Positions 16,008-62,745 of a stretch of 64,000 bases of DNA are shown here, one piece after another (positions within the stretch are counted from its first letter, which is position 1; each line of letters starts with the position of its first letter). Where the stretch lies: positions 192,001-256,000 of the forward strand of contig CAWJSJ010000001.1 in assembly GCA_963845565.1 (NCBI GenBank). Reading direction: 5' to 3'. Position numbers and translations under genes: made by a program. The notes under the pieces are model-generated. The model was not told where the DNA came from. It ran no database searches and was given only the letters and a program-made list of their open reading frames with translations. The stretch comes from an uncultured Methylomirabilota bacterium (lineage in GTDB: Bacteria > Methylomirabilota > Methylomirabilia > Methylomirabilales > 2-02-FULL-66-22).

Positions 16008-16168
16008 TGCAAGGCCGAATCCACTCGGCCCTTCCATGGCCCCAAAAGGTCGCCGTCGCTTTGAATCGAGTAGTTGGGGGGTAAGCAGCCCTGGAGCCTC
16101 GGGAGGAGTGGCGGGGGAATCGCACGATATATCGGAGAATCTCAGGGAGAATCTCCGAAGGATCGGAT
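16008..16168 (-). promoter_or_regulatory. sigma54 enhancer-IHF-promoter cassette 1
   Basis: Minus strand: ATCCGATCCTTCGGAG-N16-TCCGATATATCGTG; CAACTACTCGATT; TGGATTCGGCCTTGCA (16023-16008). Confidence 0.85.
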
Positions 16169-16456
16169 GGGGAGGGAGGATGAGCCGTCCCAGACCCACG
16201 CCCCCGGCGCTCGCCGCCGTGCGCGTTGGCGGGCGGGACGGAGCCGCTCTGGACGCCGTCGGAAGCCGCAAATTCATCCACGAACTTCGGGGACGGACAG
16301 GCGGCTAGCGTTCTGAGTTAGAGATTCGCTGACATGATCCAAAGCCCACAGGGTGCGCCAGAGACGCCGCGCCAGACCCGCCCTTCGGACGGGTACCCCC
16401 CAGCCGGCACCGCTGCGCTGCTCGGCCTCTCGCGTCCCCGCTGAGGGGTCCCGCGC

Positions 16457-16605
16457 CTCCGACCAATCGGAGATTCTCCGATATCCCGTACCTTTCCATC
16501 TCGCTCCTCCCTCGAGATTTCCAGACCGCGTCCCCGTAACCGACGGTATTAACAACGTCAAGAGGTCGTCGGGCTGTGCGCGGAGGAGATGGTTCTGGCT
16601 TTGCA
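16457..16605 (+). promoter_or_regulatory. sigma54 cassette 2
   Basis: CTCCGACCAATCGGAG-attc-TCCGATATCCCGTA; TAACCGACGGTAT (16537); TGGTTCTGGCTTTGCA (16590). Confidence 0.85.
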
Positions 16606-16817
16606 TGCCGTTTGTTTACCAGTGGGGCGGGGCCTTCCTGGCCATCTTTGCGTGACGCGTGTAATGGCATACGCACTCCCAGCCCCATCGCGTGAGTCGG
16701 GCGAAATAGTGTCTCGGCCGCGGCCCGCGCCACCGACACCACGCACCGGGTCCCAGGGGCGTGCCGCAGGACAGGCGGCGGTGTGCGCAAGACGGCGAGA
16801 AGCGAGGTACGGGGCAG

Positions 16818-18389
16818 ATGAGTGGTAGCCGACCAGCAGGCGTTCCTTCCGACGCGGCCCTTTCGCGGCCACGCGATGGAGAACCGTCAACCTGCAGGGT
16901 GACGCACTCGATCCTCACGGACCAGGACCCCGGGTTCGTGCCGCTGCTGGATCATCTTACGCGCTATCGCGGGATCGACTTCAGCGGCTATAAGCAGCCC
17001 AGCCTGATCCGCCGCCTGGCGAGCCGCATGCGCGTCGCTGGGGTCGGGGATTGTGTGGATTATCTCGCCTACCTCGACGAGCACCCGCTGGAGTACACCA
17101 CCCTCTTTGACAGCATCTTGATCAATGTCACGGGTTTTTTTCGGGACGAAGTGGCCTGGGGGTATATCCGCGAAACACTCCTCCCGAAGCTTCTCGCCAT
17201 CAAGTCGGCTGACGAGCCTGTCCGGGTGTGGAGCGCCGGCTGCGCCTCGGGCGAGGAGGTCTACACGCTGGCGATGCTCTTCGCGGAAGCCGTGGGGATG
17301 GAGGCGTTCTGCCATCGGGTCAAGATCTACGCCACCGATGTGGACGAGGAGGCCCTCTCACAAGCTCGTCAGGGGGCCTACAACGACGAGGACCTGGAAT
17401 CCATTCCGGCAACGTTACGAACGCGGTACTTCGAAACGGCCGGTTCCCGGCACGTCTTCCGGCCTGACCTGCGGCGGGCCATCGTCTTCGGACGCCAGGA
17501 CGTGTTGCGGGACGCCCCGATCTCTCGCGTGGACCTCCTCGTCTGTCGGAATACGCTGATGTACTTCGACTCCGAGGCGCAAGGGAGAATTCTGGCTCGT
17601 TTTCGCATGGCTCTCGTGGAGGCCGGCTATCTCTTCCTCGGGAAGGCGGAGCTCATCCCCGCGTACACCCACGTCTTCCACCCGGTGAATCTCAAGCACC
17701 ACATCTTCCAGAGGGTTGCCACGCTTGCAGAGACCGGAGTCCGGCCGGGCGCGGGTCTCACCAGTGCCGACGCCTCTGTGCGTCACGGACTCCCGGAAGC
17801 GCGTCGCGGCACTGTGGAGGAGCGAGCGCCAAGCGCAAAGTGGCTGCGCGCTGCCCCTACGGACCTGGAAACGCTCAACGCTGCCTTGCAGGTCACGAAC
17901 GAGGAGCTCGAAACGAGCAATGCGGAATTCGAGTCCACGAACGAGGAGCTGGGGAGCATGAATGAAGAGCTCCACTCCACCAATGAGGAGCTGGAGACTC
18001 TCAACACCGAATTGCACCGGCGGACCAACGAATTGGGTACGACGAATGCGATCCTGCAATCCATTTTGACTGGTGTGCGGGTCGGGGTGGCCGTGGTGGA
18101 CCACGACCTGACCATTCTCCTGTGGAACCACGGGGCCGAAGACCTGTGGGGTTTCAATGCCGACGAGGTGCGGGGGCGGTCCCTCTTGAGCGTCGACCTT
18201 GGCCTGCAGGCGGTGCAACAACAGATCGCCAGTCTTCTGGCGGGAGCCGCGCATCACGAGGAAATAGCGGTCGACGCGATGAATTGCCGTGGCAGGGCCG
18301 TCCGGTGTCGCATCACCTGTACCCCGTTCCTGGGACCGAGGGGGGATCGGGCTGGAGTCGTCCTGGTGATGGAGGGAAAAGCGAAATGA
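16818..18389 (+). CDS. CheR-type methyltransferase with coiled coil and C-terminal PAS domain
   Basis: DFSGYK, INVTGFFRD, RVWSAGCASGEEVYT, YATDVD, VCRNTLMYF, NEELxS/T repeats, LWNHGAEDLWG. Start codon approximate. Confidence 0.92.
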   Translation: MSGSRPAGVPSDAALSRPRDGEPSTCRVTHSILTDQDPGFVPLLDHLTRYRGIDFSGYKQPSLIRRLASRMRVAGVGDCVDYLAYLDEHPLEYTTLFDSILINVTGFFRDEVAWGYIRETLLPKLLAIKSADEPVRVWSAGCASGEEVYTLAMLFAEAVGMEAFCHRVKIYATDVDEEALSQARQGAYNDEDLESIPATLRTRYFETAGSRHVFRPDLRRAIVFGRQDVLRDAPISRVDLLVCRNTLMYFDSEAQGRILARFRMALVEAGYLFLGKAELIPAYTHVFHPVNLKHHIFQRVATLAETGVRPGAGLTSADASVRHGLPEARRGTVEERAPSAKWLRAAPTDLETLNAALQVTNEELETSNAEFESTNEELGSMNEELHSTNEELETLNTELHRRTNELGTTNAILQSILTGVRVGVAVVDHDLTILLWNHGAEDLWGFNADEVRGRSLLSVDLGLQAVQQQIASLLAGAAHHEEIAVDAMNCRGRAVRCRITCTPFLGPRGDRAGVVLVMEGKAK

Positions 18390-20146
18390 GCAATCCGGTG
18401 TGCGATCGACAGGTGCGGGAGGGCCAACGGCGCCTTGATGAGCTCACCCACAGGGTTGGGCGGATCGCGGAACAGCAACCGCTGGTGGGCGAAACCATGA
18501 GGGAACTGTCGACGGCGCTCCAGGAACTGCGTGTGGCGGCCGACGAGCTCCAGCAGCAGAACGAGGAGCTGGCCGAGACCCGCGAACTCGTGGAGGAGGA
18601 GCGCCGGCGCTACCAGGAGCTGTTCGACGACGCCCCCGACGGTTATCTCGTGACCGACGCAAAAGGCACGATCCAGCAGGCGAACGAGGTCGCGGCAAGC
18701 CTGTTGGGCGTGCGCCGGGATTTGTTGCCCGGGAAGCCCCTTGTCGTGTTCGTCGCCAGCGAAGCGCACCGGGCTTTCGCGGCCTTTGTGGCGCGACTGC
18801 ACAACGGATATTCGGAACGCGTCGCGGAGTGGCAGACCACGGTTCAGCCACGGAGTGGTCCTCCCTTTCCCGTCACCCTGACCACGGGCCGGGTCCGCGA
18901 CCGCAAGGGGCGACTCGTCGGCCTGCGCTGGCTGCTGCGAGACAGCTCCGAGCGGGTGCGCACCGAAGTGGCCCGTCGCCAGTGGGAGGCGCAACTCCAG
19001 CATACCCAGCGGCTCGAAAGCCTCGGGGTCATGGCCGGGGGCATCGCACACGACTTCAACAACCTGCTCGGGGGCATCCTCCTTTCCACCGAGCTGGCCC
19101 TTCTCCACCTTCCCCAGGACGCGCCGGCCCGCGCCGACGTTGAGCAAGTGGTGACGACCGCGCATCGGGCTGCGGACCTCACAGGCCAGATGCTGGCCTA
19201 CTCGGGCAGGGGCACCTTCCGCGTCCAACCGATCCTGCTGCCCGCCCTCATCCGGGAAATGGAGCCGTTGCTTCGCGCCTCGCTGCCGAAAACCTGCACT
19301 CTCGATCTTCATCTGGGGGAGGCGGTCCCCGCGATCGAGGCGGATGCCACCCAACTGCGCCAGGTCGTCATGAACCTGGTCATCAACGCCGGCGAAGCCA
19401 TCGGCGACGCGGCCGGGGTCGTCACGGTGCGCGTCGGTGTACGCGAAGTCGACCGTGCGTACCTGGCGAAGGGCGTGCTCGGCAACGAGATACCCGAGGG
19501 ACCGTCCGTCTCCTTGGAAATAACAGACACCGGGTGCGGCATGCCCGAGGAGACGAAAGAAAAAATGTTCGAACCCTTCTTCACGACGAAGTTCGCCGGA
19601 CGCGGCCTCGGCCTCGCCGCGGTGCTGGGGATCATTCGTGGTCATCATGGCGCGATCCTGGTGATCTCGCAGCCTGGGCACGGAACCCAGATCGAGGCGA
19701 TCTTCCCTCCCACTGCTCGGCCCGCGGTTGCTCCCTCCGCCCCGACACCGGTTCCTCCCGCGTGGAGGGGCGAAGGGACGATCCTGGTGGTGGACGACGA
19801 CGCGCATATCCGTTCTGTTGCTGCGCTCGCCCTGGAGAAGACAGGCTTCACGGTGTTGACCGCGGCCGATGGACGGGAAGCGGTCGCAGTCTTCCGTGAA
19901 CATGCGGAGACCGTCCGCGCGGTCATCCTCGATCTGACGATGCCCCATATGGACGGCGCCGCGACCGCGCGCGCGCTTCGCCAGATCCGGCCAGACGTCC
20001 GAATCGTCCTGTCCAGCGGCTACACCAAGGAGGATGCCACCAGGCAGTTCACCGACCGGGACTTGATCGGCTTCCTCCAGAAGCCCTACGCGCTCAAGGA
20101 TCTGCTTGGCACGATCCGGACGACCCTGGAGTCCCCGGACCGCTAG
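18386..20146 (+). CDS. Hybrid histidine kinase (coiled coil-PAS-HisKA-HATPase-REC)
   Basis: GGIAHDFNNLL, NLVINA, DTGCGM, FEPFFTTK, GRGLGL, receiver VVDDD...DLTMP...QKP; start overlaps the CheR stop. Confidence 0.93.
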   Translation: MSNPVCDRQVREGQRRLDELTHRVGRIAEQQPLVGETMRELSTALQELRVAADELQQQNEELAETRELVEEERRRYQELFDDAPDGYLVTDAKGTIQQANEVAASLLGVRRDLLPGKPLVVFVASEAHRAFAAFVARLHNGYSERVAEWQTTVQPRSGPPFPVTLTTGRVRDRKGRLVGLRWLLRDSSERVRTEVARRQWEAQLQHTQRLESLGVMAGGIAHDFNNLLGGILLSTELALLHLPQDAPARADVEQVVTTAHRAADLTGQMLAYSGRGTFRVQPILLPALIREMEPLLRASLPKTCTLDLHLGEAVPAIEADATQLRQVVMNLVINAGEAIGDAAGVVTVRVGVREVDRAYLAKGVLGNEIPEGPSVSLEITDTGCGMPEETKEKMFEPFFTTKFAGRGLGLAAVLGIIRGHHGAILVISQPGHGTQIEAIFPPTARPAVAPSAPTPVPPAWRGEGTILVVDDDAHIRSVAALALEKTGFTVLTAADGREAVAVFREHAETVRAVILDLTMPHMDGAATARALRQIRPDVRIVLSSGYTKEDATRQFTDRDLIGFLQKPYALKDLLGTIRTTLESPDR

Positions 20147-20261: not shown

Positions 20262-20412
20262 ATCCGACCTGTCGGAGCCCCTCCGAGATATCGTGCGTTT
20301 CCCGTGACTTTCACAAATGAGACAACGCACGAACACCCCTCCCAACCCCATGAGTCGACAGGGCTGAAACGGTGTCCGGCCACCTCGAGCGTACGGTGGA
20401 TCTGGCCTTGCA
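20262..20412 (+). promoter_or_regulatory. sigma54 cassette 3
   Basis: ATCCGACCTGTCGGAG-cccc-TCCGAGATATCGTG; CAACCCCATGAGT (20343); TGGATCTGGCCTTGCA (20397). Confidence 0.88.
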
Positions 20413-20555: not shown

Positions 20556-20816
20556 ATGGCGCTTGACATGTTCGTGATGTGGGTTGTTGCGGGGCTGATT
20601 GCCGGCTACGTGGCCGGGCACGTCATGAAGGAGGGCGGGTACGGGCTGGCTGGGGACCTCATCCTCGGGGTTGTCGGCAGCATGGTGGGGGGCTGGCTCT
20701 TCTCTGTCTCGAGGATCTCGCCGGACGCGGGGCTGGCCGCGTTGACCATCATCGCGTTCATCGCGGGGATCGCCATGATCTTCGCTCAGCATAGGCTCTG
20801 GCCCATGCACGCCTGA
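20556..20816 (+). CDS. GlsB/YeaQ/YmgE (transglycosylase-associated) membrane protein
   Basis: WVVAGLIAGYVAG...GYGLAGDLILGVVGSMVGG. Confidence 0.85.
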   Translation: MALDMFVMWVVAGLIAGYVAGHVMKEGGYGLAGDLILGVVGSMVGGWLFSVSRISPDAGLAALTIIAFIAGIAMIFAQHRLWPMHA

Positions 20817-20909
20817 AGACCGTGCCCCACATCTCAGTGGGCCGTGTCGCGACGGAGCGCGCACGGCGACCGGCCCTGGCTTGGGTGCCAGATGACTGAG
20901 GATCCGACA

Positions 20910-21215
20910 ATGCCGACCTACGAGTATCAATGCCGCTCGTGCGCGCAACGGTTTGAGGCCCGCCAAAGCATCATGGCCTCTCCGCGCAGGCGGTGCCCGC
21001 GCTGCGGGAAGAAGGTGGACCGCTTGATCAGCGCGGGCGCCGGGTTCCTGTTCAAGGGGTCGGGCTTCTACACGACTGACCATCGCTCGAAACCCTACCA
21101 GGAGGCGGCGAAGAAGGACCAGGAGGGAGGGAGCAAGGTTCGCCCCGCCGAGAATGCCCCCTCGAAAAGTGCCGCAGGTCCGAAGATGGACGCAGGCCAT
21201 GGGCAGCAGACGTGA
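20910..21215 (+). CDS. FmdB-family zinc-ribbon protein
   Basis: MPTYEYQCRSC...CPRCG...FKGSGFYTTD. Confidence 0.88.
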   Translation: MPTYEYQCRSCAQRFEARQSIMASPRRRCPRCGKKVDRLISAGAGFLFKGSGFYTTDHRSKPYQEAAKKDQEGGSKVRPAENAPSKSAAGPKMDAGHGQQT

Positions 21216-21555
21216 GACCGAACGCCGCGGTGGCGTCGGCGCCGCCATTCCGGCGACGGAGCCGCCCACGTCTCCGGTCCGAGCGGGGGCGGCTCCGTCG
21301 CCGTGCCGGTGGCCCACGCTGGCGATGGTGAGTCGGGCGATCGGTGACGTCGACGCCGCCTTGGCGGCGGATCCCCTCTTCCATCGCTGCCCGGACGGAC
21401 ACCAGGGGAGGATCGACGTGCGCTATTGGTACCTGCGGCCGCTGGAATTCTCCTGTCGCCACTGCGCCGAAGGCGGACGCGTCTGCGTGGTCGACCCACG
21501 GACCGTGGTCTGTCGCCACCGGACCGGACACCCCGTCCTGGAGGGATAGAGCGCC

Positions 21556-23436
21556 ATGGACAAAAAGCACATCGTGTCGGTGTGGTACTTCCTCGCCGCC
21601 TTTCTCCTCCTGATGGCGCTGCGGGACTACGTCTTTGCGCCGCACGTCGATACCCTCTCATACGGGGAGTTCAAGACCCTGGTGGAGAAGGGGAAGGTCA
21701 GCGAACTGGCGATCGGCGCGCAGGTCATCTCGGGGCGCCTGAAGGTGGATGGACTCGCGGGGCTCCTCCCACCGGCACGGGTCGAGGCGTTGGCCAAGGC
21801 CGGGACAGCCGATCAGCAGTTCGTGACGGTCCGGGTGGACGACCCCGCGCTCGTCCACGATCTGCAGCAAGCGAATGTCAACTTCCGGGGGGAGGTGACG
21901 AGCACCTGGCTCCCGACCTTGCTGGGCTGGCTGATCCCCATGGGGATCTTCTTCCTCATCTGGCGCTACGCCCTCAAGAAGATGGGGGGCGGTGGGGGCC
22001 TGGGTGGGCTCATGACGCTCGGAAAGAGCAAGGCCAAGGTCTATGTCCAGAAGGACACGGGGGTGACCTTCAACGACGTTGCCGGCATTGACGAGGCCAA
22101 GGCCGAGCTGGTCGAAGTCGTCGAGTTCCTGAAGACGCCGGAGCGCTTCCAGCGGCTGGGCGGGAAGATCCCGAAGGGGGTCCTCCTGGTCGGCGTCCCC
22201 GGGACGGGAAAGACGCTGCTGGCGAAGGCCGTGGCGGGCGAGGCCAAGGTGCCCTTCTTCAGCCTGAGCGGCTCGGACTTCGTCGAGATGTTCGTCGGGG
22301 TGGGCGCCGCGCGGGTCCGGGACCTGTTCGCCCAGGCGGTCACGCATGCGCCGAGCATCATCTTCATCGACGAGCTGGACGCCCTGGGCAAGGCCCGGGG
22401 CATGAACCCCATGGGGGGCCACGACGAGCGGGAGCAGACGCTGAACCAGCTCCTGGTGGAGATGGACGGCTTCGAGACCAACAAGGGCGTCATCATCATG
22501 GCGGCCACCAACCGGCCGGAGATCCTCGACCCGGCCCTGCTCCGGCCTGGCCGGTTTGACCGCCAGGTCCTGGTGGACCGGCCGGACCTCAAGGGGCGCG
22601 AGGCCATCCTCCGAGTCCACGCCAAGGGGGTGACGATTGGCCCGGAGGTCGATCTGGCCGCGATCGCCGCCAAGACGTTCGGCTTCGTCGGGGCGGATCT
22701 GGCGAACATCGTGAACGAGGCCGCCCTCCTCGCCGCCCGCCAAGGCAAGGAGGCGGTCGGGAAAGCTGATTTCGACGAGGCGATCGACCGGGTGGTCGCC
22801 GGGCTGAAGAAGACCCGGGTGATGAGCGTGAAAGAGCGGGAGATCGTGGCCACTCACGAGGCCGGACACGCGGTGGCAGCGGAGCTCCTGCCGGGGACCG
22901 ACCCGGTGGCGAAGGTCTCCATCGTCTCGCGGGGGATTGCCGCGTTGGGGTACACGCAGCAGCTCCCGACCGAGGATCGGTATCTCATGACCCGTTCGGA
23001 GCTGTTCAACCGGCTCTGCGTCCTCCTGGCCGGCCGGACCGCCGAGGAGATCGCCTTCAGCGATGTCTCGACCGGCGCCCAGAACGACCTCCAGCGGGCC
23101 ACCGACCTGGTGCGGCACATGGTGGCCCAGTACGGCATGAGCGAGAAGGTCGGCCTGATGACCTACGATGGAGGCGGACGGACGGCCCTCCTCCCGGGTC
23201 TGCCCCAGCCCCGTGAGCACAGTGAGGAGACGGCGCGACTTATCGATTCCGAGGCGAGCCGGATCCTGGTCGAGGCGCACGTAAAGGTCAGTGCCCTCCT
23301 CACGGAACAGTGGAGCGTCGTCGAACAACTCGCGCGCCGACTCCTAGAGAAGGAGGTGGTGGAGCGGGAGGAGCTGCAGACCTTGCTGGCCGGCGTGAAG
23401 CTCTCCGGGGACGGCGGCCGGGAGCGGGAGGCGTAA
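21556..23436 (+). CDS. ftsH: ATP-dependent zinc metalloprotease FtsH
   Basis: Two TM segments, [27 protein letters not shown]. Confidence 0.96.
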
Positions 23437-23518
23437 GGCAGGCGCCAAGAGTATCGGGGTGGGTCGGTGGTGGAAACGGAACGAGATCCGGACGGATGTC
23501 CGGAGAGGAGCAGGAACC

Positions 23519-23731
23519 ATGGCAACAGGCACGGTCAAGAAGCTGGTCCGGGATCGAGGTTTCGGGTTCGTTCAGGGGTCAGATGGCGTGGAGCTCTTCT
23601 TCCACCGGTCGGCAATCCTGGGAGAGGGATTCGACGCGCTGACGGAGGGACAGGCCGTCGAGTTCGATGTCGAGAAGGGAGACAAGGGACCGCGAGCGGC
23701 GCACATGAAAGTGAGCGCCCCCAGCATCTAG
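23519..23731 (+). CDS. Cold-shock domain protein
   Basis: MATGTVK...RGFGFV...LFFHRSAI...KGPRA. Confidence 0.93.
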   Translation: MATGTVKKLVRDRGFGFVQGSDGVELFFHRSAILGEGFDALTEGQAVEFDVEKGDKGPRAAHMKVSAPSI

Positions 23732-23871
23732 ACGGGCGAGGTCTCGAAACTTCACGGGGTTTGCCCTCGGTCGTTCGGCTGTGCGAGGGGTCGGGGGCAA
23801 TACCCCGGTGGGGTTGGGTCGGAGCGTGACCATGGGAAAGGAAGACGGTCTTCCTCGAAAAGGAGGTTGCG

Positions 23872-24258
23872 ATGAAAGTCAAGGAACTCATGCGAACGTC
23901 TGTGGCGAAGGTCTCGCCCGTCGCGACCGTGAGGGAGACACTCTCGATGATGGATGACTCCGGTGTCAGCTCGCTGCCCGTTGAGGATGCGGAGGGTTGC
24001 CTCTTGGGTGTGGCGAGACTCGCCGTACTTTCCCGGGCGCTCGCCGATGGAAGCGTCGCGTCCTCCGCCGCTGTCGGGGATGGTCTGTCGTCCCATCTCG
24101 TCACGGCCACGCCGGAGATGGATGCGGCCAGAGTGGCCGAGATGATGCGCGACAGAGGGGTCGACGACATCATGGTCGTCGAGGGCAGGTACCTCGTTGG
24201 CGCGCTGTCCCTGGCCGAAGCCGGGAAGGCGGACACGGGTCTACGCCCCGCGTTGTGA
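23872..24258 (+). CDS. CBS-domain protein
   Basis: MKVKELM...VSSLPV...LLGV; AGGAGG RBS. Confidence 0.8.
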   Translation: MKVKELMRTSVAKVSPVATVRETLSMMDDSGVSSLPVEDAEGCLLGVARLAVLSRALADGSVASSAAVGDGLSSHLVTATPEMDAARVAEMMRDRGVDDIMVVEGRYLVGALSLAEAGKADTGLRPAL

Positions 24259-24324
24259 CCGTCTGCGGGTCAGTGAGCGACTCCAGTACTGCGGCGACGT
24301 TCGTGACCGACGAGGAGGCGCCGA

Positions 24325-25836
24325 ATGCAGCGGGGCAGCGGACGACATCAGCACGACCTGATGGCCATCGCGCGACGGGTGATGGTCGAGCGTGACTTGC
24401 TCCCGGACTTTTCGTCGGCCGTGATGGCGGAAGTCGCGCGGAGCCAGGCGGCGCCCGCCAACGGAGCGCCGAAGATGCGGGATCTGCGGGGGCTTCTCTG
24501 GTGCTCGATCGACAACGATGATTCGCGGGACCTCGATCAGCTCACCTTGGCAGAACCGATCGGCGGTGGGGTAGTACGGATCCTGGTGGCAGTCGCGGAC
24601 GTGGACGCAACGGTCGCGCAGGGCTCGGCGACGGACGGCCACGCGCGGCACAACACCACCTCGGTGTACACGGCCGCCGCGATGTTCCCCATGCTGCCCG
24701 AACCGCTATCGACTGATCTCACGTCCCTCGGCGAAGGCGAGGATCGGGTGGCGCTGGTGGTGGAGATGGCGGTGAACGCCGACGGAACCGTGGGCGCGCC
24801 AAACCTCTATCGCGCCGTGGTGAAGAATCGCGCCAAGCTGGCCTATGTTGCGGTCGCCGCGTGGCTCGACGCGACGGGACCGATCCCGAGTCGGGCGGCC
24901 ATCGTGCCGGGCATGGAGGCCCAGCTCCGGCTCCAGGACCAGGTCGCGCAACGGCTGCGGGAGGTGCGACACCACCACGGGGCGTTGAGCCTGGAAACCA
25001 TCCAGGCGCGGCCGGTGTTCCAGGGCGAGACACTGACTGACCTGGAGGTGGAGCATCCCAACCGGGCTCGGGCGCTGATCGAGGACTTCATGATCGCGGC
25101 GAACGGCGTGACGGCGCGCTACCTGGAGGCCCAGGGCTATCCATCGCTCCGCCGGGTCCTGCGCTCCCCGGAGCGGTGGGCGCGAATCGTCGAGCTGGCC
25201 GCCGGGTTGGGGACATCCCTGCCCCCGCAACCGGCCGCGGCTGCCCTGGACGCGTTCTTGACGGTGCGCCGCCAAGCCGATCCACTGCGGTTCCCCGACC
25301 TGTCGCTAGCCATCGTCAAGCTGATGGGGCGCGGGGAGTACGTCGTGGAGCTTCCCGGCCAGACGGCGCCCGGACACTTCGGGTTGGCCGTGCAAGCCTA
25401 CACCCATTCCACGGCACCCAACCGTCGCTTTCCTGATCTGATCGCTCAGCGGCTTCTGAAGGCGGCGCTGGCGCACAGCCCGGCCCCGTACGCAAACGCG
25501 GAGCTGCAGGAGCTGGCCCAGCACTGCACCGAGGCGGAGGACCGCGCGAACAAGGTCGAGCGCCAGGTGGGGAAATCGGCCGCCGCGCTCCTGCTGGAGC
25601 CTCGGATCGGAGAGCAGTTCGACGCGATCGTCACGGGGGCGTCGCAGAAGGGGACCTGGGTCCGCATCCTCCGGCCGCCGGTGGAAGGCAAGCTGGTGCA
25701 TGGCGCCGACGGGCTGGACGTCGGCGACCAGTTGCAGGTCACGCTGATTGGGACCGATGTCGAGCAGGGCTATATCGATTTCTCACGGGTGGGCGGCTCG
25801 CCGGCCATGAGCCTTCGGTCCCGGCCGACCCGTTGA
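24325..25836 (+). CDS. RNB-domain (RNase II/R family) ribonuclease
   Basis: SIDNDDSRDLDQ, IEDFMIAAN, HFGLA..YTHSTAPNRRFPDL. Confidence 0.9.
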   Translation: MQRGSGRHQHDLMAIARRVMVERDLLPDFSSAVMAEVARSQAAPANGAPKMRDLRGLLWCSIDNDDSRDLDQLTLAEPIGGGVVRILVAVADVDATVAQGSATDGHARHNTTSVYTAAAMFPMLPEPLSTDLTSLGEGEDRVALVVEMAVNADGTVGAPNLYRAVVKNRAKLAYVAVAAWLDATGPIPSRAAIVPGMEAQLRLQDQVAQRLREVRHHHGALSLETIQARPVFQGETLTDLEVEHPNRARALIEDFMIAANGVTARYLEAQGYPSLRRVLRSPERWARIVELAAGLGTSLPPQPAAAALDAFLTVRRQADPLRFPDLSLAIVKLMGRGEYVVELPGQTAPGHFGLAVQAYTHSTAPNRRFPDLIAQRLLKAALAHSPAPYANAELQELAQHCTEAEDRANKVERQVGKSAAALLLEPRIGEQFDAIVTGASQKGTWVRILRPPVEGKLVHGADGLDVGDQLQVTLIGTDVEQGYIDFSRVGGSPAMSLRSRPTR

Positions 25837-26079
25837 ATGGATTGGGGACGCTTTTCTGACCGGCCGGAGGTTCGATTCCATCCCGACCGGACCGATGTCG
25901 CACCAGCGCGGAGCATTTCAACATCGAGTCCCGTCTCGGGAGATCCCGGCTCCAGCACTCTCGCTGTGTGTGCCTCCAACAGGTTACATCGAATGCTGGC
26001 GCCGGGCGGCTGCCAGGGACTGGGAATCCGAGGCTCGGGGTGGCCCTGGGACCGGCTGGTCCTGAACTGGTGGAACGCC

Positions 26080-26727
26080 GTGGAGAGCCTCCAGGGATTC
26101 GTCGAACAGTTCACATACCTCGGCGTGTTCGCCGTGCTCGTCCTGGGCAGCCTGGGGGTGCCTATCCCCGAGGAGATGGCCATCATCGCGGCCGCCGTCC
26201 TGAGCCACGAGGGGCTCGTCCGGTGGTGGCTGGCGCTTCTCATCTGTCTCCTGGGTGTGCTTTCCGGCGATATGGCGCTCTACTGGGTCGGTCGGCACTG
26301 GGGGGCCGACGTCCTCGCCTGGCGCGCGGTCCGGCTCGTGCTGACGCGCAAGCGGGAGCAGTGGCTGAAGGCGGCGTATCGGCGGCATGCCCTGAAGACC
26401 ATCGTCACGGCGCGGCATGTCATGGGACTCCGCGCCGCGGCTTTTCTGACGGCGGGCATGGCGCGCGTGCCGTTCTGGAAGTTCGTCGTGGCCGACGCGG
26501 GCACCGCGCTGGTCGGCGTCCCGCTTTTGTTTGGATTGGCCTTCTTCTTCACGGATCAGATCCAAGCCATCGTGGCCGACGTGCACCGGGTGGAGCGCTG
26601 GCTCGCGCTCGCCGGCCTCGTGGGGCTCATGGTGGTGCTGGGCGTCGGCGTGTGGCGATGGAAACGGCGTCTCGCGACGGAGAAGCTTGAGGGGGAACGG
26701 ACCGAGACGCCTGCAGTTCGCCCGTGA
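26080..26727 (+). CDS. DedA-family membrane protein
   Basis: GVPIPEE, SGDMALYWVGR, ARHVMGLRAAAFLTAG. Start codon approximate. Confidence 0.85.
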   Translation: MESLQGFVEQFTYLGVFAVLVLGSLGVPIPEEMAIIAAAVLSHEGLVRWWLALLICLLGVLSGDMALYWVGRHWGADVLAWRAVRLVLTRKREQWLKAAYRRHALKTIVTARHVMGLRAAAFLTAGMARVPFWKFVVADAGTALVGVPLLFGLAFFFTDQIQAIVADVHRVERWLALAGLVGLMVVLGVGVWRWKRRLATEKLEGERTETPAVRP

Positions 26728-26778: not shown

Positions 26779-26928
26779 CTCCGACCCCTCGGAGCCGCTC
26801 CGAAATCTCGGACGAGTCCCGTCTGCTGATCCGCGCGGATGTGGCCGTCGGATCCCATCCAACCACGCGATTAGTCCGGACGAATGCCCCTTCGGCCACC
26901 TTGGGAGCGGGGTGGATCTGGCCTTGCA
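26779..26928 (+). promoter_or_regulatory. sigma54 cassette 4
   Basis: CTCCGACCCCTCGGAG-ccgc-TCCGAAATCTCGGA; CAACCACGCGATT (26860); TGGATCTGGCCTTGCA (26913). Confidence 0.88.
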
Positions 26929-26998: not shown

Positions 26999-27259
26999 AT
27001 GACTCTGGAACTGTTCGTGCTGTGGGCCATCGGGAGACTGCTGGCCGGCTGGCCGACCGGGTGGATCGTGAATGGCAGCGGGTACGGACTGATGGGCGAC
27101 ATGGCCCTCGGGCTCGTCGGTAGCCTCTTGGGGAGCTGGATTGTCCTGGCGCTTGGGGTGTCGGTGGGCGCGGCGCTCCTCGCGGTAGGTGGCGGTGCGG
27201 TCATCGGAGCGGTCCTGCTGATCGGCGCCCAGCGCGTGCTCGAGCACGTGCATGCTTAG
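26999..27259 (+). CDS. GlsB/YeaQ/YmgE paralog
   Basis: GYGLMGDMALGLVGSLLG; similar to 20556..20816, both end in HA. Confidence 0.8.
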   Translation: MTLELFVLWAIGRLLAGWPTGWIVNGSGYGLMGDMALGLVGSLLGSWIVLALGVSVGAALLAVGGGAVIGAVLLIGAQRVLEHVHA

Positions 27260-27328
27260 GGACGTGAATGGTGGTGAGAGGAGCGAACGGTTCTCACGGG
27301 GCTGGTCGTTCGCTGTGGAGGAGAAGAG

Positions 27329-27472
27329 ATGACAAGATTAGTGAGTCGCATGCGGATCGGCGTCGTCCTTTGTTGCCTCGTGGCGATCTTCATGGCGGGG
27401 TGCGCCACCGCCCGCGGCGTTGGGCAGGACACGCAATCGCTCGGGCGCAGCATCGAGAAGAAAGCGCAATAG
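27329..27472 (+). CDS. Entericidin EcnA/B-family lipoprotein (47 aa)
   Basis: Manual translation: ...AIFMAGC-ATARGVGQDTQSLGRSIEKKAQ; lipobox; GGAGGAG RBS. Confidence 0.85.
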   Translation: MTRLVSRMRIGVVLCCLVAIFMAGCATARGVGQDTQSLGRSIEKKAQ

Positions 27473-27545
27473 CGGGGACGGCAAGATAGGCGCGGCGCTG
27501 GCCTGGGCCCATACACGGTCCGTCACTGGGCGGAAGGAGGTTGTC

Positions 27546-27698
27546 ATGGGAACGATTCTGCTCATCGTATTGGTGCTGTTCGTTGTCGGGGCGCTCCCGA
27601 CCTGGCGGCACAGTAGCACCTGGGGGTACGGCCCGAGTGGCGGGCTCGGTCTGGTCCTTCTGATCCTGTTGGTCCTGGTCCTGACCGGGCGCCTCTGA
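27546..27698 (+). CDS. DUF3309-family small membrane protein
   Basis: MGTILLIVLVLFVVGALPTWRHSSTWGYGPSGGLGLVLLILLVLVLTGRL. Confidence 0.88.
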   Translation: MGTILLIVLVLFVVGALPTWRHSSTWGYGPSGGLGLVLLILLVLVLTGRL

Positions 27699-27747
27699 CG
27701 AGGCCGCCCTCGTCACACCTTATGCCGCCTACACGAGGAGATCTGTC

Positions 27748-28038
27748 ATGCGAAGCTATGAAGCGTTTCTCTTGGGCGCGATCACGGGCGGCGTCGCCGT
27801 CTGGGTTTGGGGGAAGGAGATCACGGGCTACCTGCAGGAGCAGACCCGCGGGGTGCGCACGCAGGCCGCGGAGCGCATCCACGCGGTCGAAGAGAGCGCG
27901 GAGCAGCTGCTCGACCGCGGCGGGGATGCCCTGCGGCGCGCCGAGGAGGTTCTGCAGGATACCAAGGCACACGTCCGCGAGACGCTCCAGAAGGGGCAGG
28001 ACGCGATTCGTCCCGCCCCGACAACCGGCGGAGTATGA
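27748..28038 (+). CDS. YtxH-like small helical protein
   Basis: FLLGAITGGVAV N-terminal anchor followed by amphipathic helix. Confidence 0.6.
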   Translation: MRSYEAFLLGAITGGVAVWVWGKEITGYLQEQTRGVRTQAAERIHAVEESAEQLLDRGGDALRRAEEVLQDTKAHVRETLQKGQDAIRPAPTTGGV

Positions 28039-28242
28039 CCAAACCGTCCACCAGGTGAGCTGAAGGTGGGCGCGCGGACATCGGTCCGGGGATCGGGCCG
28101 CTGCCCACGTCGTCTTACTGTGCGGTGCGTAAAGTAGGCGACACTCCGGCCGGGACCGCACAGTCCGGGGGGGCAGCGCGGCGGGCGGTGGAGCCATTGT
28201 TCTGTGCTGCGTAGTATGTCCGCTCATTCATAGAGGTCCAAA

Positions 28243-28446
28243 ATGATGCGACACTTTCTGGCTGTGATTGTCTTTGGACTCGTCATCGCGTTCGGCGCGG
28301 CCGCGTGCGACAAGGGCCCGATGCAAAAGACGGGCGAGAAGATCGACCGCGCCACGGGTCAGGACAAGGTGATCGGAACGGGTCCCCTCGAGCAGGCGGG
28401 CCGGAACGTTGACCGGGCTGTGAAAGACCTCAAGAAGCTCGACTGA
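28243..28446 (+). CDS. Small lipoprotein
   Basis: AAAC lipobox followed by DKGPMQKTGEKID...GPLEQAGRNVD internal repeat. Confidence 0.75.
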   Translation: MMRHFLAVIVFGLVIAFGAAACDKGPMQKTGEKIDRATGQDKVIGTGPLEQAGRNVDRAVKDLKKLD

Positions 28447-28565
28447 AGCGTCAGGGTTGTCGGTGGGGTCAAGGTGATTTTCGCACAGCGCGTGTTCGAG
28501 TGCGCGCAAGTCTGCGGACGCACGCCGCATCGGCGGGACGCGACCGCCCCACAAGGAGGAAGATC

Positions 28566-29285: not shown

Positions 29286-29303
29286 GCCGTTGTCAAAGAA
29301 TAA

Positions 29304-29699
29304 ATGGAGACATCGATGCTGTATGTGACCGACACCCCCAAGGATGTGGCAACCGCCACGCGGGATCTGGAAGAAGCGGTGAAGCGCAACAAGTTCGGCG
29401 TCCTGCATGTGCACGACCTCCAGAAAACGCTCAAGGAGAAGGGCGTGGACTTTCCGAACGCCTGTCGGATCCTGGAGGTGTGCAACCCGCAGCGGGCCGT
29501 CCAGGTGCTGACGGGGAACATGGGAATGAACATGGCCCTGCCTTGCCGGATCTCTGTCTATCAGGACGGGGGGAAGACCAAGATCGGCATGATTCGGCCG
29601 ACCGCCCTCCTGGCGCTCTTCCCCGGGGCCGCCGCCCTCAAAGCGGTCGCGGAGGACGTGGAGCGGGAGACCATACAGATGATTGACGAGGCGCGCTAA
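29304..29699 (+). CDS. DUF302 protein
   Basis: FGVLHVHDLQKTL...ILEVCNP...LPCRISVY. Confidence 0.88.
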   Translation: METSMLYVTDTPKDVATATRDLEEAVKRNKFGVLHVHDLQKTLKEKGVDFPNACRILEVCNPQRAVQVLTGNMGMNMALPCRISVYQDGGKTKIGMIRPTALLALFPGAAALKAVAEDVERETIQMIDEAR

Positions 29700-29715
29700 A
29701 GGAGGAGAAGAAGAG

Positions 29716-49990: not shown

Positions 49991-50140
49991 CTCCAGAATC
50001 TCGGAGCCCCTCCGATATGTCGTGCGGTTTCCGTCGATCCCCCCATGCTAGGCTCGACTCGGCATCGGCGCGAATCCGGTAATTTGAAAGGGGCGCAGCC
50101 CCCTCTGCCCCGTGATTCCGAGGGTGGATCTGTTGTTGCA
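49991..50140 (+). promoter_or_regulatory. sigma54 cassette 7
   Basis: CTCCAGAATCTCGGAG-cccc-TCCGATATGTCGTG; GAATCCGGTAATT (50072); TGGATCTGTTGTTGCA (50125). Confidence 0.85.
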
Positions 50141-51556: not shown

Positions 51557-52378
51557 TTACGCCTTGAAGAAGGCGAGCAGATCCGCGTTGATCTGGTCCT
51601 TCTGGGTCGCGCACAGGCCGTGCGGCGCGCCTTTGTACACCTTCAGTTGCGCGTTGTTGATCAGCTTGGCGGCCAGCAGGGCCGACGCGCCGATGGGCAC
51701 GATCTGGTCGTCGTCGCCATGTAAGATGAGCGTTGGCACATCAAACTGTTTGAGATCTTCGGTGAAATCCGTCTCGGAGAACGCCTTGATGCAGTCGATG
51801 ACGCCTTTGAACCCTGCTTGCATCCCCGCGAGCCAGAACGCATCCCGCAGGCCCTGCGAGACCTTGGCGCCGGGCCGGTTAGCGCCATAGAACGGCGTGG
51901 TGAGGTCCTTGAAGAACTGCGAACGGTCGGCGAGGACGCCGGCGCGGATCTTGTCGAACGCGTCGATCGGCAAGCCACCGGGATTGGCCGCCGTCCTCAG
52001 CATCAGCGGTGTCACCGCACCGATCAGCACGGCCTTGGCCATCCGCTTCGTGCCGTGGCGGCCGATGTAGCGTGCCACCTCGCCGCCGCCGGTGGAGTGG
52101 CCGACATGGATCGCGTTCTCTAGGTCGAGCGTTTTCACGAGCGCCGCAAGGTCGTCAGCGTACGTGTCCATGTCGTTGCCCGTCCAGGGCTGGCTCGAGC
52201 GCCCGTGGCCGCGGCGGTCATGGGCGATGCACCGGTAGCCGTGGGCGCCCAGAAACACCATCTGGTCGTCCCAGGCGTCCGCGTTCAGCGGCCAACCGTG
52301 GCTGAACACCACGGGCTGTCCCGTGCCCCAGTCTTTGTAATAAAGCTGCGTGCCGTCTTTGGTCGTGATCGTGGCCAT
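51557..52378 (-). CDS. Non-heme haloperoxidase / alpha-beta hydrolase
   Basis: [39 protein letters not shown]. Confidence 0.93.
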
Positions 52379-52441
52379 GGACCCTCTCTTTTCGGTGCAG
52401 GCTCGCGTCCGCATCAATCCGTGGAATGCGAAGAAACCAAT

Positions 52442-52609
52442 CTACGCAGTGACTTGTCCCGCGCAGCCCGGATGGCTGCAACCGCAGCCGATGACGGTAA
52501 TGTCCATGCCCTTCGCCCCCTCGCAGGGCGCGCTGCAATACCGGCTGTCGGGGGTAGCGATACACCTGCAGATTGGGTTCGCGCATTTCCCCTGCTTCTC
52601 GTCCGCCAT
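52442..52609 (-). CDS. Metallothionein-like peptide (55 aa, 8 Cys)
   Basis: Manual translation: MADEKQGKCANPICRCIATPDSRYCSAPCEGAKGMDITVIGCGCSHPGCAGQVTA; AAGGAGG RBS. Confidence 0.8.
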   Translation of the reverse strand: MADEKQGKCANPICRCIATPDSRYCSAPCEGAKGMDITVIGCGCSHPGCAGQVTA

Positions 52610-52934
52610 GTGTCTTGCCTCCTTTCCCTACCACCACTCGCCGATTTCTATCGACACCCTCGGTGAAACGAAAATCCAGCATTCGGGCTTTCTGAAACCA
52701 AATATGCAACCGTGGCGTGTGTGGATTGGTGCGGTCACGCCCCGCGTCACCTTGTCTCGACCGGACCACTGGTCGATACAGCAGCCGAACGCCGTCTTGG
52801 TGACGACCCAGACGGATCGGGATGGGCGACACAGTGCGACGAGCCATCCGGCCCCGCGGCCGGGGGATCGCGCCGGAGCCAGCGTGCGACTGTCCGGGCA
52901 GTGCCCCCCCCGGTCCCGCGGGGTCCGCGCGATG

Positions 52935-53096
52935 CTACCCGTGGGAACGCAACCCGCCGAACATGTACACGAGCACTGCCACGAGCAGCACCGTCCCGAA
53001 GATCCCCAGGCCCCCGCCGGCCCCCCAATGGGAATAGCCGTAGTAGCCGCCGCCTCCGCCGAACAACAGCACCAGCACAATAATGAGCAGTAACAT
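52935..53096 (-). CDS. DUF3309-like small membrane protein
   Basis: MLLLIIVLVLLFGGGGGYYGYSHWGAGGGLGIFGTVLLVAVLVYMFG. Confidence 0.8.
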   Translation of the reverse strand: MLLLIIVLVLLFGGGGGYYGYSHWGAGGGLGIFGTVLLVAVLVYMFGGLRSHG

Positions 53097-53169: not shown

Positions 53170-53320
53170 TGCATAACCGGGTCCACCGCTCGCGGCCCGC
53201 GGCTCGCCGGGGTCTCCGCCTCGCGAAAACAAATGGTTGGACGGAAGGCGGGGACGCCCGCGCCACGGCTGGGCCGACGGGAATTCCCCGAGATTTCGGA
53301 ACGCCTCCAAGATCTCGGAG
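53170..53320 (-). promoter_or_regulatory. sigma54 cassette 8
   Basis: Minus strand: CTCCGAGATCTTGGAG-gcgt-TCCGAAATCTCGGG; CAACCATTTGTTT; TGGACCCGGTTATGCA (53185-53170). Confidence 0.85.
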
Positions 53321-53367: not shown

Positions 53368-53518
53368 ATCCGACGGGTCGGAGTTGGTCCGAAATCTCGG
53401 GGGGGTCCGGTCGGTGACCCCACGGAGATGTTGCGGCGACATCTTATCCAACCAGTTGATTACACGGGGCCGGGACCGTGTCAGGCCCATCACCCCGCGG
53501 GGTGGTTCTGGTGTTGCA
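53368..53518 (+). promoter_or_regulatory. sigma54 cassette 9
   Basis: ATCCGACGGGTCGGAG-ttgg-TCCGAAATCTCGGG; CAACCAGTTGATT (53449, exact reverse-complement match to the IHF consensus); TGGTTCTGGTGTTGCA (53503). Confidence 0.9.
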
Positions 53519-57973: not shown

Positions 57974-58072
57974 GCCCATTGGCGTAAGGCAGGCTTGGTC
58001 GCCGTTAAGATAATGGTACCCACCTACGACGACTGGATAGTAGTCCTTTAGGGGTAAATCGGACCCGGTGTC

Positions 58073-58362
58073 CTCGACGAGATCGCCGAGCTCCCGCTGG
58101 AGCTGCAGGTCAAGCTGTTGCGGGGCCTGGAGAGCGGGCAGCTGGAGCGGCTCGGCAGCACCAAGACCCTCACGGTGGATGTCCGGGTGATCGCCGCGAG
58201 CAACCGCGGCCTGGCCGCCCTGGTCGCCACCGACAGCTCCACCTTCCGGGTGTCGGTGGGGACGGCCCCCGCGGCCCGGGCGGCGCCGCCGCGCTGCTCG
58301 GCCTCAACCCCACCACCCTCGTGTCCCGCCTCAAGAAGCTCGGCCTCACGCGTCCCCGCTGA
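58073..58362 (+). pseudogene. Remnant of a sigma54 enhancer-binding protein (FhlA-like HTH)
   Basis: LDEIAELPLELQVKLLR...ERLGSTKTLTVDVRVIAASNR, then an internal deletion, then GPGGAAALLGLNPTTLVSRLKKLGL. No GAFTGA loop or N-terminus. Confidence 0.88.
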
Positions 58363-58374: not shown

Positions 58375-58525
58375 CTCCGACCGATCGGAGAGGCTCCGAT
58401 ATATCGTGCGTTTCCCCTCGATGTCTCCGCTGAGATCTTTCCGCCGCATCCCAGCCAACCTCCTGATTCCACCGAGCGGGGACTCGCCTCGGGCCCCCCG
58501 GCGCGCGGCTGGAACTGGCTTTGCA
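58375..58525 (+). promoter_or_regulatory. sigma54 cassette 10
   Basis: CTCCGACCGATCGGAG-aggc-TCCGATATATCGTG; CAACCTCCTGATT (58456); TGGAACTGGCTTTGCA (58510). Confidence 0.9.
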
Positions 58526-61413: not shown

Positions 61414-61536
61414 GCGATCTACGAGCACGGCCTGCTCCGAATCGATGCGCCCTTCAAAGATCCGATGGAAGATGCTATGAAGGTCGCCATCAAAGCAGGT
61501 GGCGTGGAAACCAAGACCAAGAAAATCGAAGCCTGA
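61414..61536 (+). pseudogene. Hsp20/alpha-crystallin C-terminal fragment
   Basis: AIYEHGLLRIDAPFKDPMEDAMKVAI resembles AxYxNGLLxI; no 5' part. Confidence 0.6.
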
Positions 61537-61705
61537 TGACCCGATAACTTGAGAGAGTCTCTTCTCATCCCACCACGGATGACGCCAGATTCATCGGGCC
61601 GGACCCTACCGCTGGAGGTGCCACCCGGGTTCTAATTTCATCTAGGTAAACCCCCGGCTCTCCCGGGGGACTCCGAGAGTGTGACAGTTCCGGGCGTGCC
61701 TGCGT

Positions 61706-62461
61706 GTGGTCCGCGGACCAGCCCGGGAGAGAAGAGAACATGGTCCACATCGCAACTCCAAGATAATGTGGCGCCGTCGCCCTCAGCAAAGTTCAACAGC
61801 GCGCGGCACAACGCCTACGGATGCCCTTCGCGGACAGGTTTCGAAACTCGCGTACGCGTGGGAAAAAATCCGAGAATTGCCTCACCGCCAAGAGGATCGG
61901 CTTCTTCTGTTCGCCAGTGGCGTAGATATCTATCGCACCCAAATCGCGCGTGAGCTTTGGCCGATTTCCTTTCGCCATCTCCGCCCCATTCATATCGTTA
62001 CGGACCAAGCCGGTGCAAGCGCCAAAATGCAAGCGCGAGCGCAGACGCTTCGCACATTCGCGCGATCCGTGCCCTCCGGACACACGGTCACCTCGGCCGA
62101 GATTGATCGATTGATGCCATCGGTGACGCCGTTTCGCGCAGTGGAGGACGAGGACGGAACTTTCATCCTCTTTGAGGGAGTCGGTCGCTACCATGCGATT
62201 CGCGAAGCCCTGGGGGAGGATGCCATTTTGGATATTTGGGTTGAGGTGTTTCGGACGAAGGATCCGGCTCGCACCCTGAGGTTGGTCCATGACGTTCAGC
62301 GCGCCAATGGTCTCCGATCGGGTGTGCCGGGGCCGCTGTTGGATTTGATCGGTCCTGCGAATTCCTCAACTCCTGGATTCTTGGCTCGAGTATGGGAGCA
62401 CGGATTGATCCGGAGTTTTGTGCAGGCCCTGCGCCGGAAGTTCCCAAAAACGGCTGGCTGA
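61706..62461 (+). CDS. Hypothetical protein, possible ParB/sulfiredoxin-like motif
   Basis: PFRAVEDEDGTFILFEGVGRYHAI resembles PIxV...xxxDGxHRxxA; lower GC; start uncertain. Confidence 0.45.
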   Translation: MVRGPARERREHGPHRNSKIMWRRRPQQSSTARGTTPTDALRGQVSKLAYAWEKIRELPHRQEDRLLLFASGVDIYRTQIARELWPISFRHLRPIHIVTDQAGASAKMQARAQTLRTFARSVPSGHTVTSAEIDRLMPSVTPFRAVEDEDGTFILFEGVGRYHAIREALGEDAILDIWVEVFRTKDPARTLRLVHDVQRANGLRSGVPGPLLDLIGPANSSTPGFLARVWEHGLIRSFVQALRRKFPKTAG

Positions 62462-62595
62462 AATCAACCCGTTGTGGCGCGAAGCGCTCGCGGCGCCGCA
62501 TGCCTTCCGATTCGTCCGCCCCGACCGCGCCAGTCGCTTCGCCCTGGCTCGCCGCCGCCCCCGGAGCCCGCGCCAGCGCGCGAACGCGTCCCAGA

Positions 62596-62745
62596 CTCCG
62601 AGATCTCGGAGCCGCTCCGATCCCTCGGGCGGGTGTCGCCGGTCCCTCCGCGGCACAGGTGTCGCCGCCTCCCACCCAACTGTGTAACTCCACAGGGCAG
62701 AGACCTCCCAAGGCGCGGGAGGAGCGCGATGGATCTCGTATTGCA
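62596..62745 (+). promoter_or_regulatory. sigma54 cassette 11
   Basis: CTCCGAGATCTCGGAG-ccgc-TCCGATCCCTCGGG; CAACTGTGTAACT (62677); TGGATCTCGTATTGCA (62730). Confidence 0.88.

Follow-up and report, generated by a model that had tools for sequence, protein, structure and literature searches.

Duplicated enhancer-IHF-sigma-54 promoter cassettes on an accessory island of an uncultured Methylomirabilota bacterium and their likely FhlA-like activator

We analysed a window of 64,000 nucleotides from an uncultured Methylomirabilota bacterium (positions 192001-256000 of contig C1, CAWJSJ010000001.1, assembly GCA_963845565.1; the host genome, G000, has a size of 5.36 Mb and a GC content of 66% and is 98.7% complete). 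An earlier reading of the sequence alone had described in this window 11 sites with one architecture, consisting of tandem palindromes, an IHF-like motif and a sigma-54 promoter. A sequence check found all 11 cassettes at their expected coordinates, and the observation was confirmed to be larger than first noted, with 23 copies in the genome. The cassettes are homologous duplicates, not merely common motifs. With good confidence, we regard them as sigma-54 promoters of one regulon, in which the activator P0001 would act on the palindromes, IHF would bend the DNA and sigma-54 polymerase would open the promoters of a set of stress genes.

The palindrome pair of each cassette forms one larger dyad, TCCGA-N4-TCGGA-N5-TCCGA-N4-TCG. 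As had been claimed, the second palindrome lies 113-115 bp before the TGG of the promoter in 11/11 window cassettes when measured from its TCCGA start, and the first palindrome, said to keep a constant distance in 10 of the 11, was found 19 bp above the second in these 10; the exception is the cassette at 16008-, in which a short duplication has shifted the first palindrome to 144 bp before TGG. The -24/-12 elements have the exact GG-N10-GC spacing described earlier, with the consensus TGGATCTGGYBTTGCAT, and this core is present in 22/22 scanned sites plus the 23rd copy. The -24 element reads TGGATC in 14 of 27 intergenic matches on the island, and outside the island it mostly has CAC or CAT. 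The IHF-like 13-mer (reverse WATCAANNNNTTR), which had been read as YAA-N4-TTGATW-like in each cassette, has its best match position at -54/-53 from TGG. It occurs with three or fewer mismatches in 21/22 genome sites, only two of the 22 being perfect, and its mean number of mismatches was 1.95 at -54/-53 versus a median of 6.25 at other offsets, a positional enrichment that supports the predicted site.

The composite pattern was counted 10 times in the window, and neither 100 order-4 Markov simulations of the window nor the other 5.23 Mb of the genome contained it. In a held-out scan, a matrix trained on the window sites picked up 11 additional strong enhancers outside the window. Ten of them map to C1 256.9-331.0 kb and one to C2 978776, and in 11/11 the distance to a sigma-54 site is 113-115 bp. 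The 23rd copy, which is slightly degenerate, follows the stop codon of the activator gene. Thus 12 cassettes lie beyond the window, 11 in the same insertion of about 128 kb (C1 207-335 kb) and one on another contig. A match at window position 40560 was rejected as a cassette, being coding-like sequence with no enhancer, and no tRNA was found in the window. It is hardly probable that the cassettes are a dispersed repeat, a miniature mobile element or neutral duplication debris: although the copies are homologous and the island contains segmental duplications, the spacers between the motifs, already noted to have diverged, have decayed to a mean pairwise identity of 0.42 while the three motifs keep phase, and another lineage shows the same architecture combined with a -24/-12 sequence that differs. 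In addition, 23/23 cassettes are intergenic and face the next gene, according to our own gene caller, extending to the whole set the remark that each points into an adjacent gene, and the window has no Rfam match. Contigs from RNA libraries (four runs from four studies, at 88% likeness) covered most of the genes; such contigs cannot give starts, strand or level, and the fact that two of them start 18 and 30 nt after a predicted transcription start (at 20441 and 26969) is at most a hint. None of the 16 RNA runs screened contained half of the sampled words.

The enhancer-IHF-sigma-54 reading, for which a genome without rpoN had been named as one possible refutation, gained support from the gene content: G000 has one rpoN, about 31 full sigma-54 activator domains and five HU/IHF-family genes, not resolved into ihfA and ihfB, and the spacing is kept in relatives (see below). 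The likely activator of the cassettes is P0001, an FhlA-like GAF-AAA-HTH protein encoded 32 kb to the right of the window (C1 288347-290479). This putative cognate activator has 710 amino acids in the order PAS-GAF-AAA-HTH, with an intact AAA domain, GAYTGA loop and HTH; GAYTGA is given as a tolerated variant of the GAFTGA loop in the part of PMC4641369 available to us. Among the 31 activators of G000, only P0001 has the recognition helix PTTLESR. Its profile scores, 372 and 369 bits, are far from the FhlA cut-off of 830 and also under the NifA and NorR cut-offs, and Escherichia coli FhlA (39% identity) falls outside the P0001 clade, yet is the nearest characterised protein in the tree. An AlphaFold model of the activator had a predicted local distance difference test score (pLDDT) of 87.7, and a fold search with it matched generic activator AAA domains only; for the GAF domain, matches to solved GAF domains reached no better than E~0.05, so that no clue to a ligand was obtained, and its near-invariant positions include no conspicuous metal or haem ligand residue.

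On the pattern of established sigma-54 biology, two P0001 dimers would bind the tandem palindromes, IHF would bend and loop the DNA at about -54 from TGG, and the ATPase ring of the activator would open the sigma-54 holoenzyme at TGGATCT-N4-TTGCA, about 115 bp away; transcription would begin at the predicted start sites (Table 1), and 23 promoters before general-stress and protein-quality genes would be switched on under stress. It is very unlikely that another of the roughly 31 activators drives the cassettes. An NtrC-type gene does lie 3.4 kb from the C2 cassette, and one of two paralogs on contig C5 is sister to the ortholog clade of P0001; however, the frame of that paralog stops before the HTH, the others have different recognition helices, and it is the P0001 orthologs that track and abut the motif, although the distribution of other activators over the genus was not searched.

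We compared 20 further genomes of the genus and another 230 from the phylum. An exact match to the enhancer pattern was present in 6/20 genus genomes, and 8/20 matched when one mismatch was allowed; none of the 230 gave an exact match. Activator orthologs, with 69-91% identity, are present in seven of the 20, all among the eight motif-positive genomes, and none was found in the 12 motif-negative ones (in five of these, among 54 of 55-82 candidates). The orthologs not only co-occur with the motif but also abut it, which supports the earlier proposal of one activator for the cassettes: in 11/13 ortholog genes retrieved by protein search, an enhancer half lies no more than 90 nt from the stop codon, and in G005 each of four activator copies is followed by an enhancer. 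Over all loci, 34/36 activator genes abut an enhancer, but most of these were picked by the enhancer. Conservation of the spacing in relatives, which had been suggested as a check, was observed in stretches fetched from eight genomes, where 36/41 strong enhancers have a generic sigma-54 site at 112-117 bp. Composite hits in G018 (two) and G020 (one) were treated as chance, since they lack the first palindrome and the control also gave one hit. Locus L007 carries the label of another phylum; having the same genes and length as a contig of G008, it was not taken as a separate lineage.

P0001 is encoded by the last gene of a cluster comprising a cheB/cheR fusion, a PAS kinase, kaiC, kaiB, kaiB and a PAS gene (C1 280606-290479, L002). 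A kaiC-kaiB activator cluster is partly present in G005, and kaiBC genes occur with other PAS partners in G006 and G002. In P0001, which is the only intact copy in G000, the N-terminal coiled-coil/PAS module shares 98% DNA identity with the beginning of the kinase gene that lies 5 kb upstream; as judged by these sequences, the module is a recent domain shuffle, and the input of P0001 may have been rewired in this way. One could suppose that the regulon is the output of the clock-like KaiC/KaiB and CheBR signalling cluster. The long activator form closes the kaiC-kaiB-kaiB-PAS series in both G000 and G005, its N-terminal module is shared with the kinase that follows cheBR, and KaiC scores above the NF006799 cut-off. 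This is nevertheless unlikely: KaiC was found in only 3/20 relatives and was not found in G014, which has eight cassettes and two activator genes, so it is not required; G006 and G002 carry kaiBC on contigs without a cassette; and most P0001 orthologs are GAF-only proteins of about 521 amino acids. Dependence on Kai was rejected as a general feature.

Two window cassettes retain broken 3' ends of the activator gene, which indicates that the cassettes were dispersed, at least in part, through copying of the gene tail together with the promoter. Specifically, cassette 10 is preceded by a remnant of the gene, and the block after it is 89% identical to C1 291602-293046, downstream of the intact activator gene; cassette 2 is preceded by a short scar, and the G009 assembly has an activator gene, there with a frameshift, at the position of this scar between the same two divergent cassettes. 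Short, weaker activator matches were found upstream of about four further cassettes. From these sequences a duplication origin is evident for cassettes 2 and 10, and may be extrapolated to the rest. The ancestral unit would have consisted of the activator gene, the cassette and an ABM-family gene; copies of the gene tail and cassette would have landed before new genes, and the coding part would then have decayed.

The cassettes had been assigned to an island of about 48 kb. That they lie on an island was borne out, but it extends over about 128 kb (C1 207-335 kb): fur, the gene on the left side of the cluster, adjoins the homolog of C1 335204 in G004 and G020 and that of C1 338968 in G014, and since fur there abuts the homologs of the right flank, the 128 kb constitutes an insertion in G000 at a site that is empty in these relatives. 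It had also been claimed that the activator controls most of the island, which was an overstatement, as window positions 40.5-48 kb, and likewise the majority of the minus-strand operons at C1 293-320 kb, are without their own cassette. In G009, the closest relative, the cluster is at another site with its blocks shuffled, and in G014, a single contig, the cassettes are scattered over four loci. No tyrosine integrase was found on C1 (serine recombinases and transposases were not searched for), nor any shared repeat of more than 12 bp at the island ends, and the GC content of the island, 65.7%, does not deviate from the 65.9% of the genome. On the RpoN tree the regulon requires three gains or losses, fitting either one gain and two losses or transfer within the genus. 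The 90% cluster to which the island GroEL belongs has a member with the label candidate division NC10. Two kinds of repeat were also noted: one of about 185 bp with an internal palindrome (C1 261603-261787 and 309340-309495), with many 81-89% copies on other contigs, resembling repetitive extragenic palindromes or miniature inverted-repeat transposable elements; and a 19-bp word starting TAGGAGCCGTTAC, with 150 copies genome-wide (e.g. C1 415783 and C2 1570651), probably a dispersed repeat or the end of a mobile element.

The cassette targets in G000 include genes for CsbD, several BON proteins, four DUF3309-like proteins, entericidin, YtxH/DUF948, PRC barrels, a trehalose-6-phosphate synthase domain and dodecin, along with genes for Usp, CBS and DinB/YfiT proteins, a fatty-acid desaturase, and extra DnaK, FtsH and GroES/GroEL. 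The sole phmmer matches of G000 for CsbD, entericidin, the OtsA type and dodecin are all in the island, as are 7/7 for BON. The available part of PMC5437024 lists CsbD/YjbJ, YmgE and EcnB as RpoS targets in Salmonella, and that of PMC7083833 lists csbD and ecnAB as EcfG targets in Sphingopyxis. Among the stretches fetched from eight relatives, seven genomes yielded 42 cassettes; the genes downstream encode hyp138, a small membrane protein, in six relatives and GlsB-like, GroES, GroEL and ABM proteins in five each. Hyp138 is the most consistent target across relatives, and an Atlas search with it returned unnamed clusters only. An ABM-family gene follows the activator and promoter in the genus, on contigs labelled Geobacteraceae and Acidobacteriota, and in the second lineage described next; one ABM homolog is labelled Candidatus Methylomirabilis sp.

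When metagenomes were scanned by enhancer alone, 126 stretches were obtained; the analysis covered the 80 for which flanks had been fetched, comprising 79 distinct sites. A generic sigma-54 site is present at 109-117 bp in 64/79 and at 100-103 bp only, about one helical turn less, in two more; among the 68 sites with both flanks readable, 60 have a sigma-54 site. The 46 high-GC sites mostly have TGGATCT, and the 33 lower-GC sites mostly TGGCCCG. These lower-GC, Bradyrhizobium-like sites lie beside GAF activators that are 50-52% identical to the genus form and have the same PTTLESR helix; close homologs of one of them (81-86%) carry the names Bradyrhizobium sp., B. quebecense and B. manausense, and a DUF992 protein next to it falls in a cluster with one from Bradyrhizobium. 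None of 401 genomes sampled evenly from the class of G257 showed the enhancer pattern, and this sample gave no confirmation of it in a named Bradyrhizobium genome. Going by these homologies, the switch seems to occur in culturable soil bacteria as well. In the order of G256 (Acidobacteriota, its locus labelled Vicinamibacterales), 10/151 genomes have a one-mismatch match versus four with the reversed control; among eight fetched loci, one has the same helix, a second has a related GAF protein, 2/8 have an ABM gene and 0/8 have a strict sigma-54 site at the usual distance. In Geobacteraceae homologs both the helix and the palindrome differ, and the pattern was not found in 9/10 genomes of distant homologs. 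No enhancer match was found in viral contigs and no close activator on plasmids, the best being 56% over the AAA part. On a 52%-GC contig of a third lineage (L183:2684-4522), a PAS-GAF activator has the same helix and is followed after its stop codon by the same enhancer. A second region in G000 (C5 643-712 kb, L234-L237) resembles the Bradyrhizobium-like regulon; it contains the two paralogous activators, an ABM gene, and sulfatase-, HAD- and DUF2092-like and multihaem genes, several of which look fragmented, and a sigma-54-like site at C5 646766 follows CTCCAA-N5-TTGGAG-like palindromes.

Several observations weigh against a single general-stress regulon spread with its activator. The cassette -24 element deviates from the usual TGGCAC, and clear coding remnants precede only 2/21 of the cassettes not beside an intact gene. 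In the genus comparison, five motif-negative genomes had only part of their candidates scored, and kin are not independent; two ortholog genes, both in G006, fail strict adjacency, the site being degenerate or more distant; and G012 has one strong enhancer but yielded neither an ortholog at E<=1e-120 nor a sigma-54 match at the usual distance. As to the targets, CsbD occurs in only 3/20 relatives, of which one is motif-negative, and BON genes are also frequent in genomes that lack the motif, so that it is G000, G009 and G005 that the general-stress label suits best. The targets of the Bradyrhizobium-like regulon differ, comprising sulfatases, HdeA, DUF308, DUF2092 and porins. G000 also has a short RpoS/RpoD-like group-2 sigma factor, scoring below the RpoS cut-offs, and the regulon may therefore supplement, rather than replace, a conventional response. 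The gene for this factor (C1 984405-985262, L288:1905-2762) lies between those for a DegP-type protease and a response-regulator phosphodiesterase.

With the same promoters and activator, and compatible with the same wiring, the system may respond to one specific cue, such as low pH, low oxygen or redox state, or heat, rather than to general stress. We hold this to be a real possibility, though not the probable one. HdeA and DUF308, which we take to be HdeD-like, among the Bradyrhizobium-like targets would suit it, as would the fact that the best-conserved targets are chaperonins. The Usp, CBS, hemerythrin and cation ATPase genes of the island resemble the oxygen-limitation regulon of NmpR as far as the available part of PMC11841059 describes it. 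However, the G000 targets span the osmotic, envelope, chaperone and small-protein classes typical of RpoS and EcfG regulons, and the GAF domain, as mentioned, displays no conspicuous metal or haem ligand. A general-stress output remains our preferred reading for G000.

The features of the window are listed in Table 1. An 84-bp tandem repeat at 56775-57824 (8.2 + 3.7 copies) codes for a 28-residue coiled-coil repeat in an interrupted frame. The stretch 40749-48400 is cassette-free, with short open reading frames (ORFs) lacking a Pfam match and partly lower GC; within it, C1 234404-235083 repeats, in inverted orientation and at 88-92% identity, DNA that lies next to the coiled-coil repeat. The trehalose-phosphate synthase frame ends at 40470, but coding-like sequence with a phosphatase-type motif goes on (39193-41300), suggesting a broken bifunctional gene or an assembly error.

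Table 1. Cassettes and genes in the window (window coordinates; +1, predicted transcription start)
Feature	Position	Strand	Remarks
hyp138, 138-aa membrane protein	15500..15916	-	no Pfam or NCBIfam family
Cassette 1	16008..16167	-	first palindrome displaced; into hyp138 gene; +1 ~15997
Scar of activator gene	16400..16444	+	last ~14 codons, internally deleted
Cassette 2	16458..16605	+	+1 ~16616
CheR-PAS gene and PAS-histidine kinase-receiver gene	16899..20146	+	
Cassette 3	20263..20412	+	+1 ~20423
Small membrane protein, Zn-ribbon protein, FtsH, cold-shock domain, CBS, RNB nuclease, VTT/DedA	20556..26727	+	small membrane protein presumably GlsB/YeaQ/YmgE family; weak PRK10457 match
Cassette 4	26780..26928	+	+1 ~26939
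GlsB-like, entericidin EcnA/B, DUF3309, YtxH-like, small lipoprotein, Ysc84/SYLF lipoprotein, DUF302	26999..29934	+	GlsB-like by similarity; YtxH-like is our own label
Cassette 5	30101..30250	+	+1 ~30261; into fatty-acid desaturase (30417-31409)
Cassette 6	32163..32312	+	+1 ~32323
CsbD, 268-aa ORF, extra DnaK, PRC-barrel, SBP3-SLT, trehalose-6-phosphate synthase (GT20) domain	32635..40470	+	
Cassette 7	49992..50140	+	+1 ~50151; into small lipoprotein-like ORF and DinB/YfiT-family gene (50566-51036)
DUF3309 and alpha/beta hydrolase	51557..53096	-	hydrolase: Pfam Abhydrolase_1 only; presumably non-haem chloroperoxidase-like
Cassette 8	53170..53319	-	+1 ~53159
Cassette 9	53369..53518	+	back to back with cassette 8; perfect IHF consensus; +1 ~53529
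Double-BON (OsmY-like) gene	53596-54150		target of cassette 9
Broken activator-gene remnant	58070..58362	+	part of AAA domain and HTH end; 86-94% nucleotide identity; directly before cassette 10
Cassette 10	58376..58525	+	+1 ~58536; then BON/LTXXQ-like block, PRC-barrel, YHS
Cassette 11	62597..62745	+	+1 ~62756; into BON lipoprotein (63153-63467)

These data assign a candidate activator, a motif and 23 targets to a large, uncharacterised group of proteins labelled 'formate hydrogenlyase activator' in databases, and suggest a way in which an uncultured lineage could place a general-stress gene set under sigma-54. The broken activator tails before two cassettes may represent regulon growth caught in progress, in which promoters are copied rather than arising singly. 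More speculatively, and with less than even confidence, sigma-54 control of general stress may be a fourth design beside RpoS, SigB and EcfG, built on a movable island by copying the promoter at the activator tail, in which case each duplication would recruit new genes; the activator family (PTTLESR helix, TCCGA-N4-TCGGA enhancer and ABM partner) may be a soil-stress switch across phyla, its input swapped by domain shuffling, here onto CheBR/KaiBC. Since activator relatives of the second lineage are named in cultured Bradyrhizobium species, the system should be testable in a tractable host.

A full-text search, mostly of open-access papers (RegPrecise and CollecTF being outside its scope), found no paper on the motif, on the activator or on a CsbD/BON regulon under sigma-54. 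Systems of the NifA/nifH and NtrC/glnAp2 type are familiar examples of sigma-54 promoters that have upstream activator sites and IHF. The cassettes share with these the GG-N10-GC core, a tandem palindromic enhancer 100-150 bp upstream, an IHF site in between and an AAA+ activator with a GAFTGA-type loop, and differ in having a new enhancer sequence, TGGATC instead of TGGCAC, and 23 promoters. For comparison, most activators of Desulfovibrio vulgaris control one to four operons and the largest controls 12, according to the portion of PMC4641369 available. FhlA and HyfR have the same GAF-AAA-HTH layout and a similar C-terminus, and automatic annotations use the name; however, the recognition helix is (K/N)PTTLESR here and KRTTLLSR there, E. 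coli hyc/hyp intergenic DNA, inspected by eye, lacks the tandem motif, and no formate hydrogenlyase or hydrogenase genes were found among the annotated genes downstream of the cassettes.

The general stress responses governed by RpoS, SigB and PhyR-NepR-EcfG have overlapping targets (CsbD/YjbJ, YmgE-like and EcnB), and OsmY-like BON proteins and OtsA are also among the general-stress target families. Unlike these, the present system would use sigma-54 and an activator ATPase in place of a sigma-70-family factor (extra sigma-70-type promoters at the target genes were not searched for), and it has an accessory-island cluster with second copies of GroESL, DnaK and FtsH. The transmissible stress-tolerance locus (tLST), as portrayed in the available part of PMC8290217, is likewise an accessory island with extra protein-quality genes (FtsH) and envelope-stress proteins; it is described there as highly conserved and constitutively expressed, with its control not fully elucidated, whereas here the gene order is shuffled between species and many operons have their own sigma-54 cassette. 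The tLST core of sHsp20, ClpG/K, YfdX, HdeD and KefB in fixed order was not seen among the island proteins scanned, which did not include every small ORF, and only FtsH is common to the tLST and the G000 island. NmpRSTU of Myxococcus xanthus, in the accessible text of PMC11841059, also combines a sigma-54 activator, tandem sites and USP and CBS-type genes, but its activator has a phosphorylated receiver domain, its site is GCGCA-N5-TGCGC and seven promoters are bound. Set beside these systems, the promoter mechanism of sigma-54, enhancer and IHF is textbook; the pairing of motif and activator, the size of the regulon, its stress content and the route of copying appear to be new.

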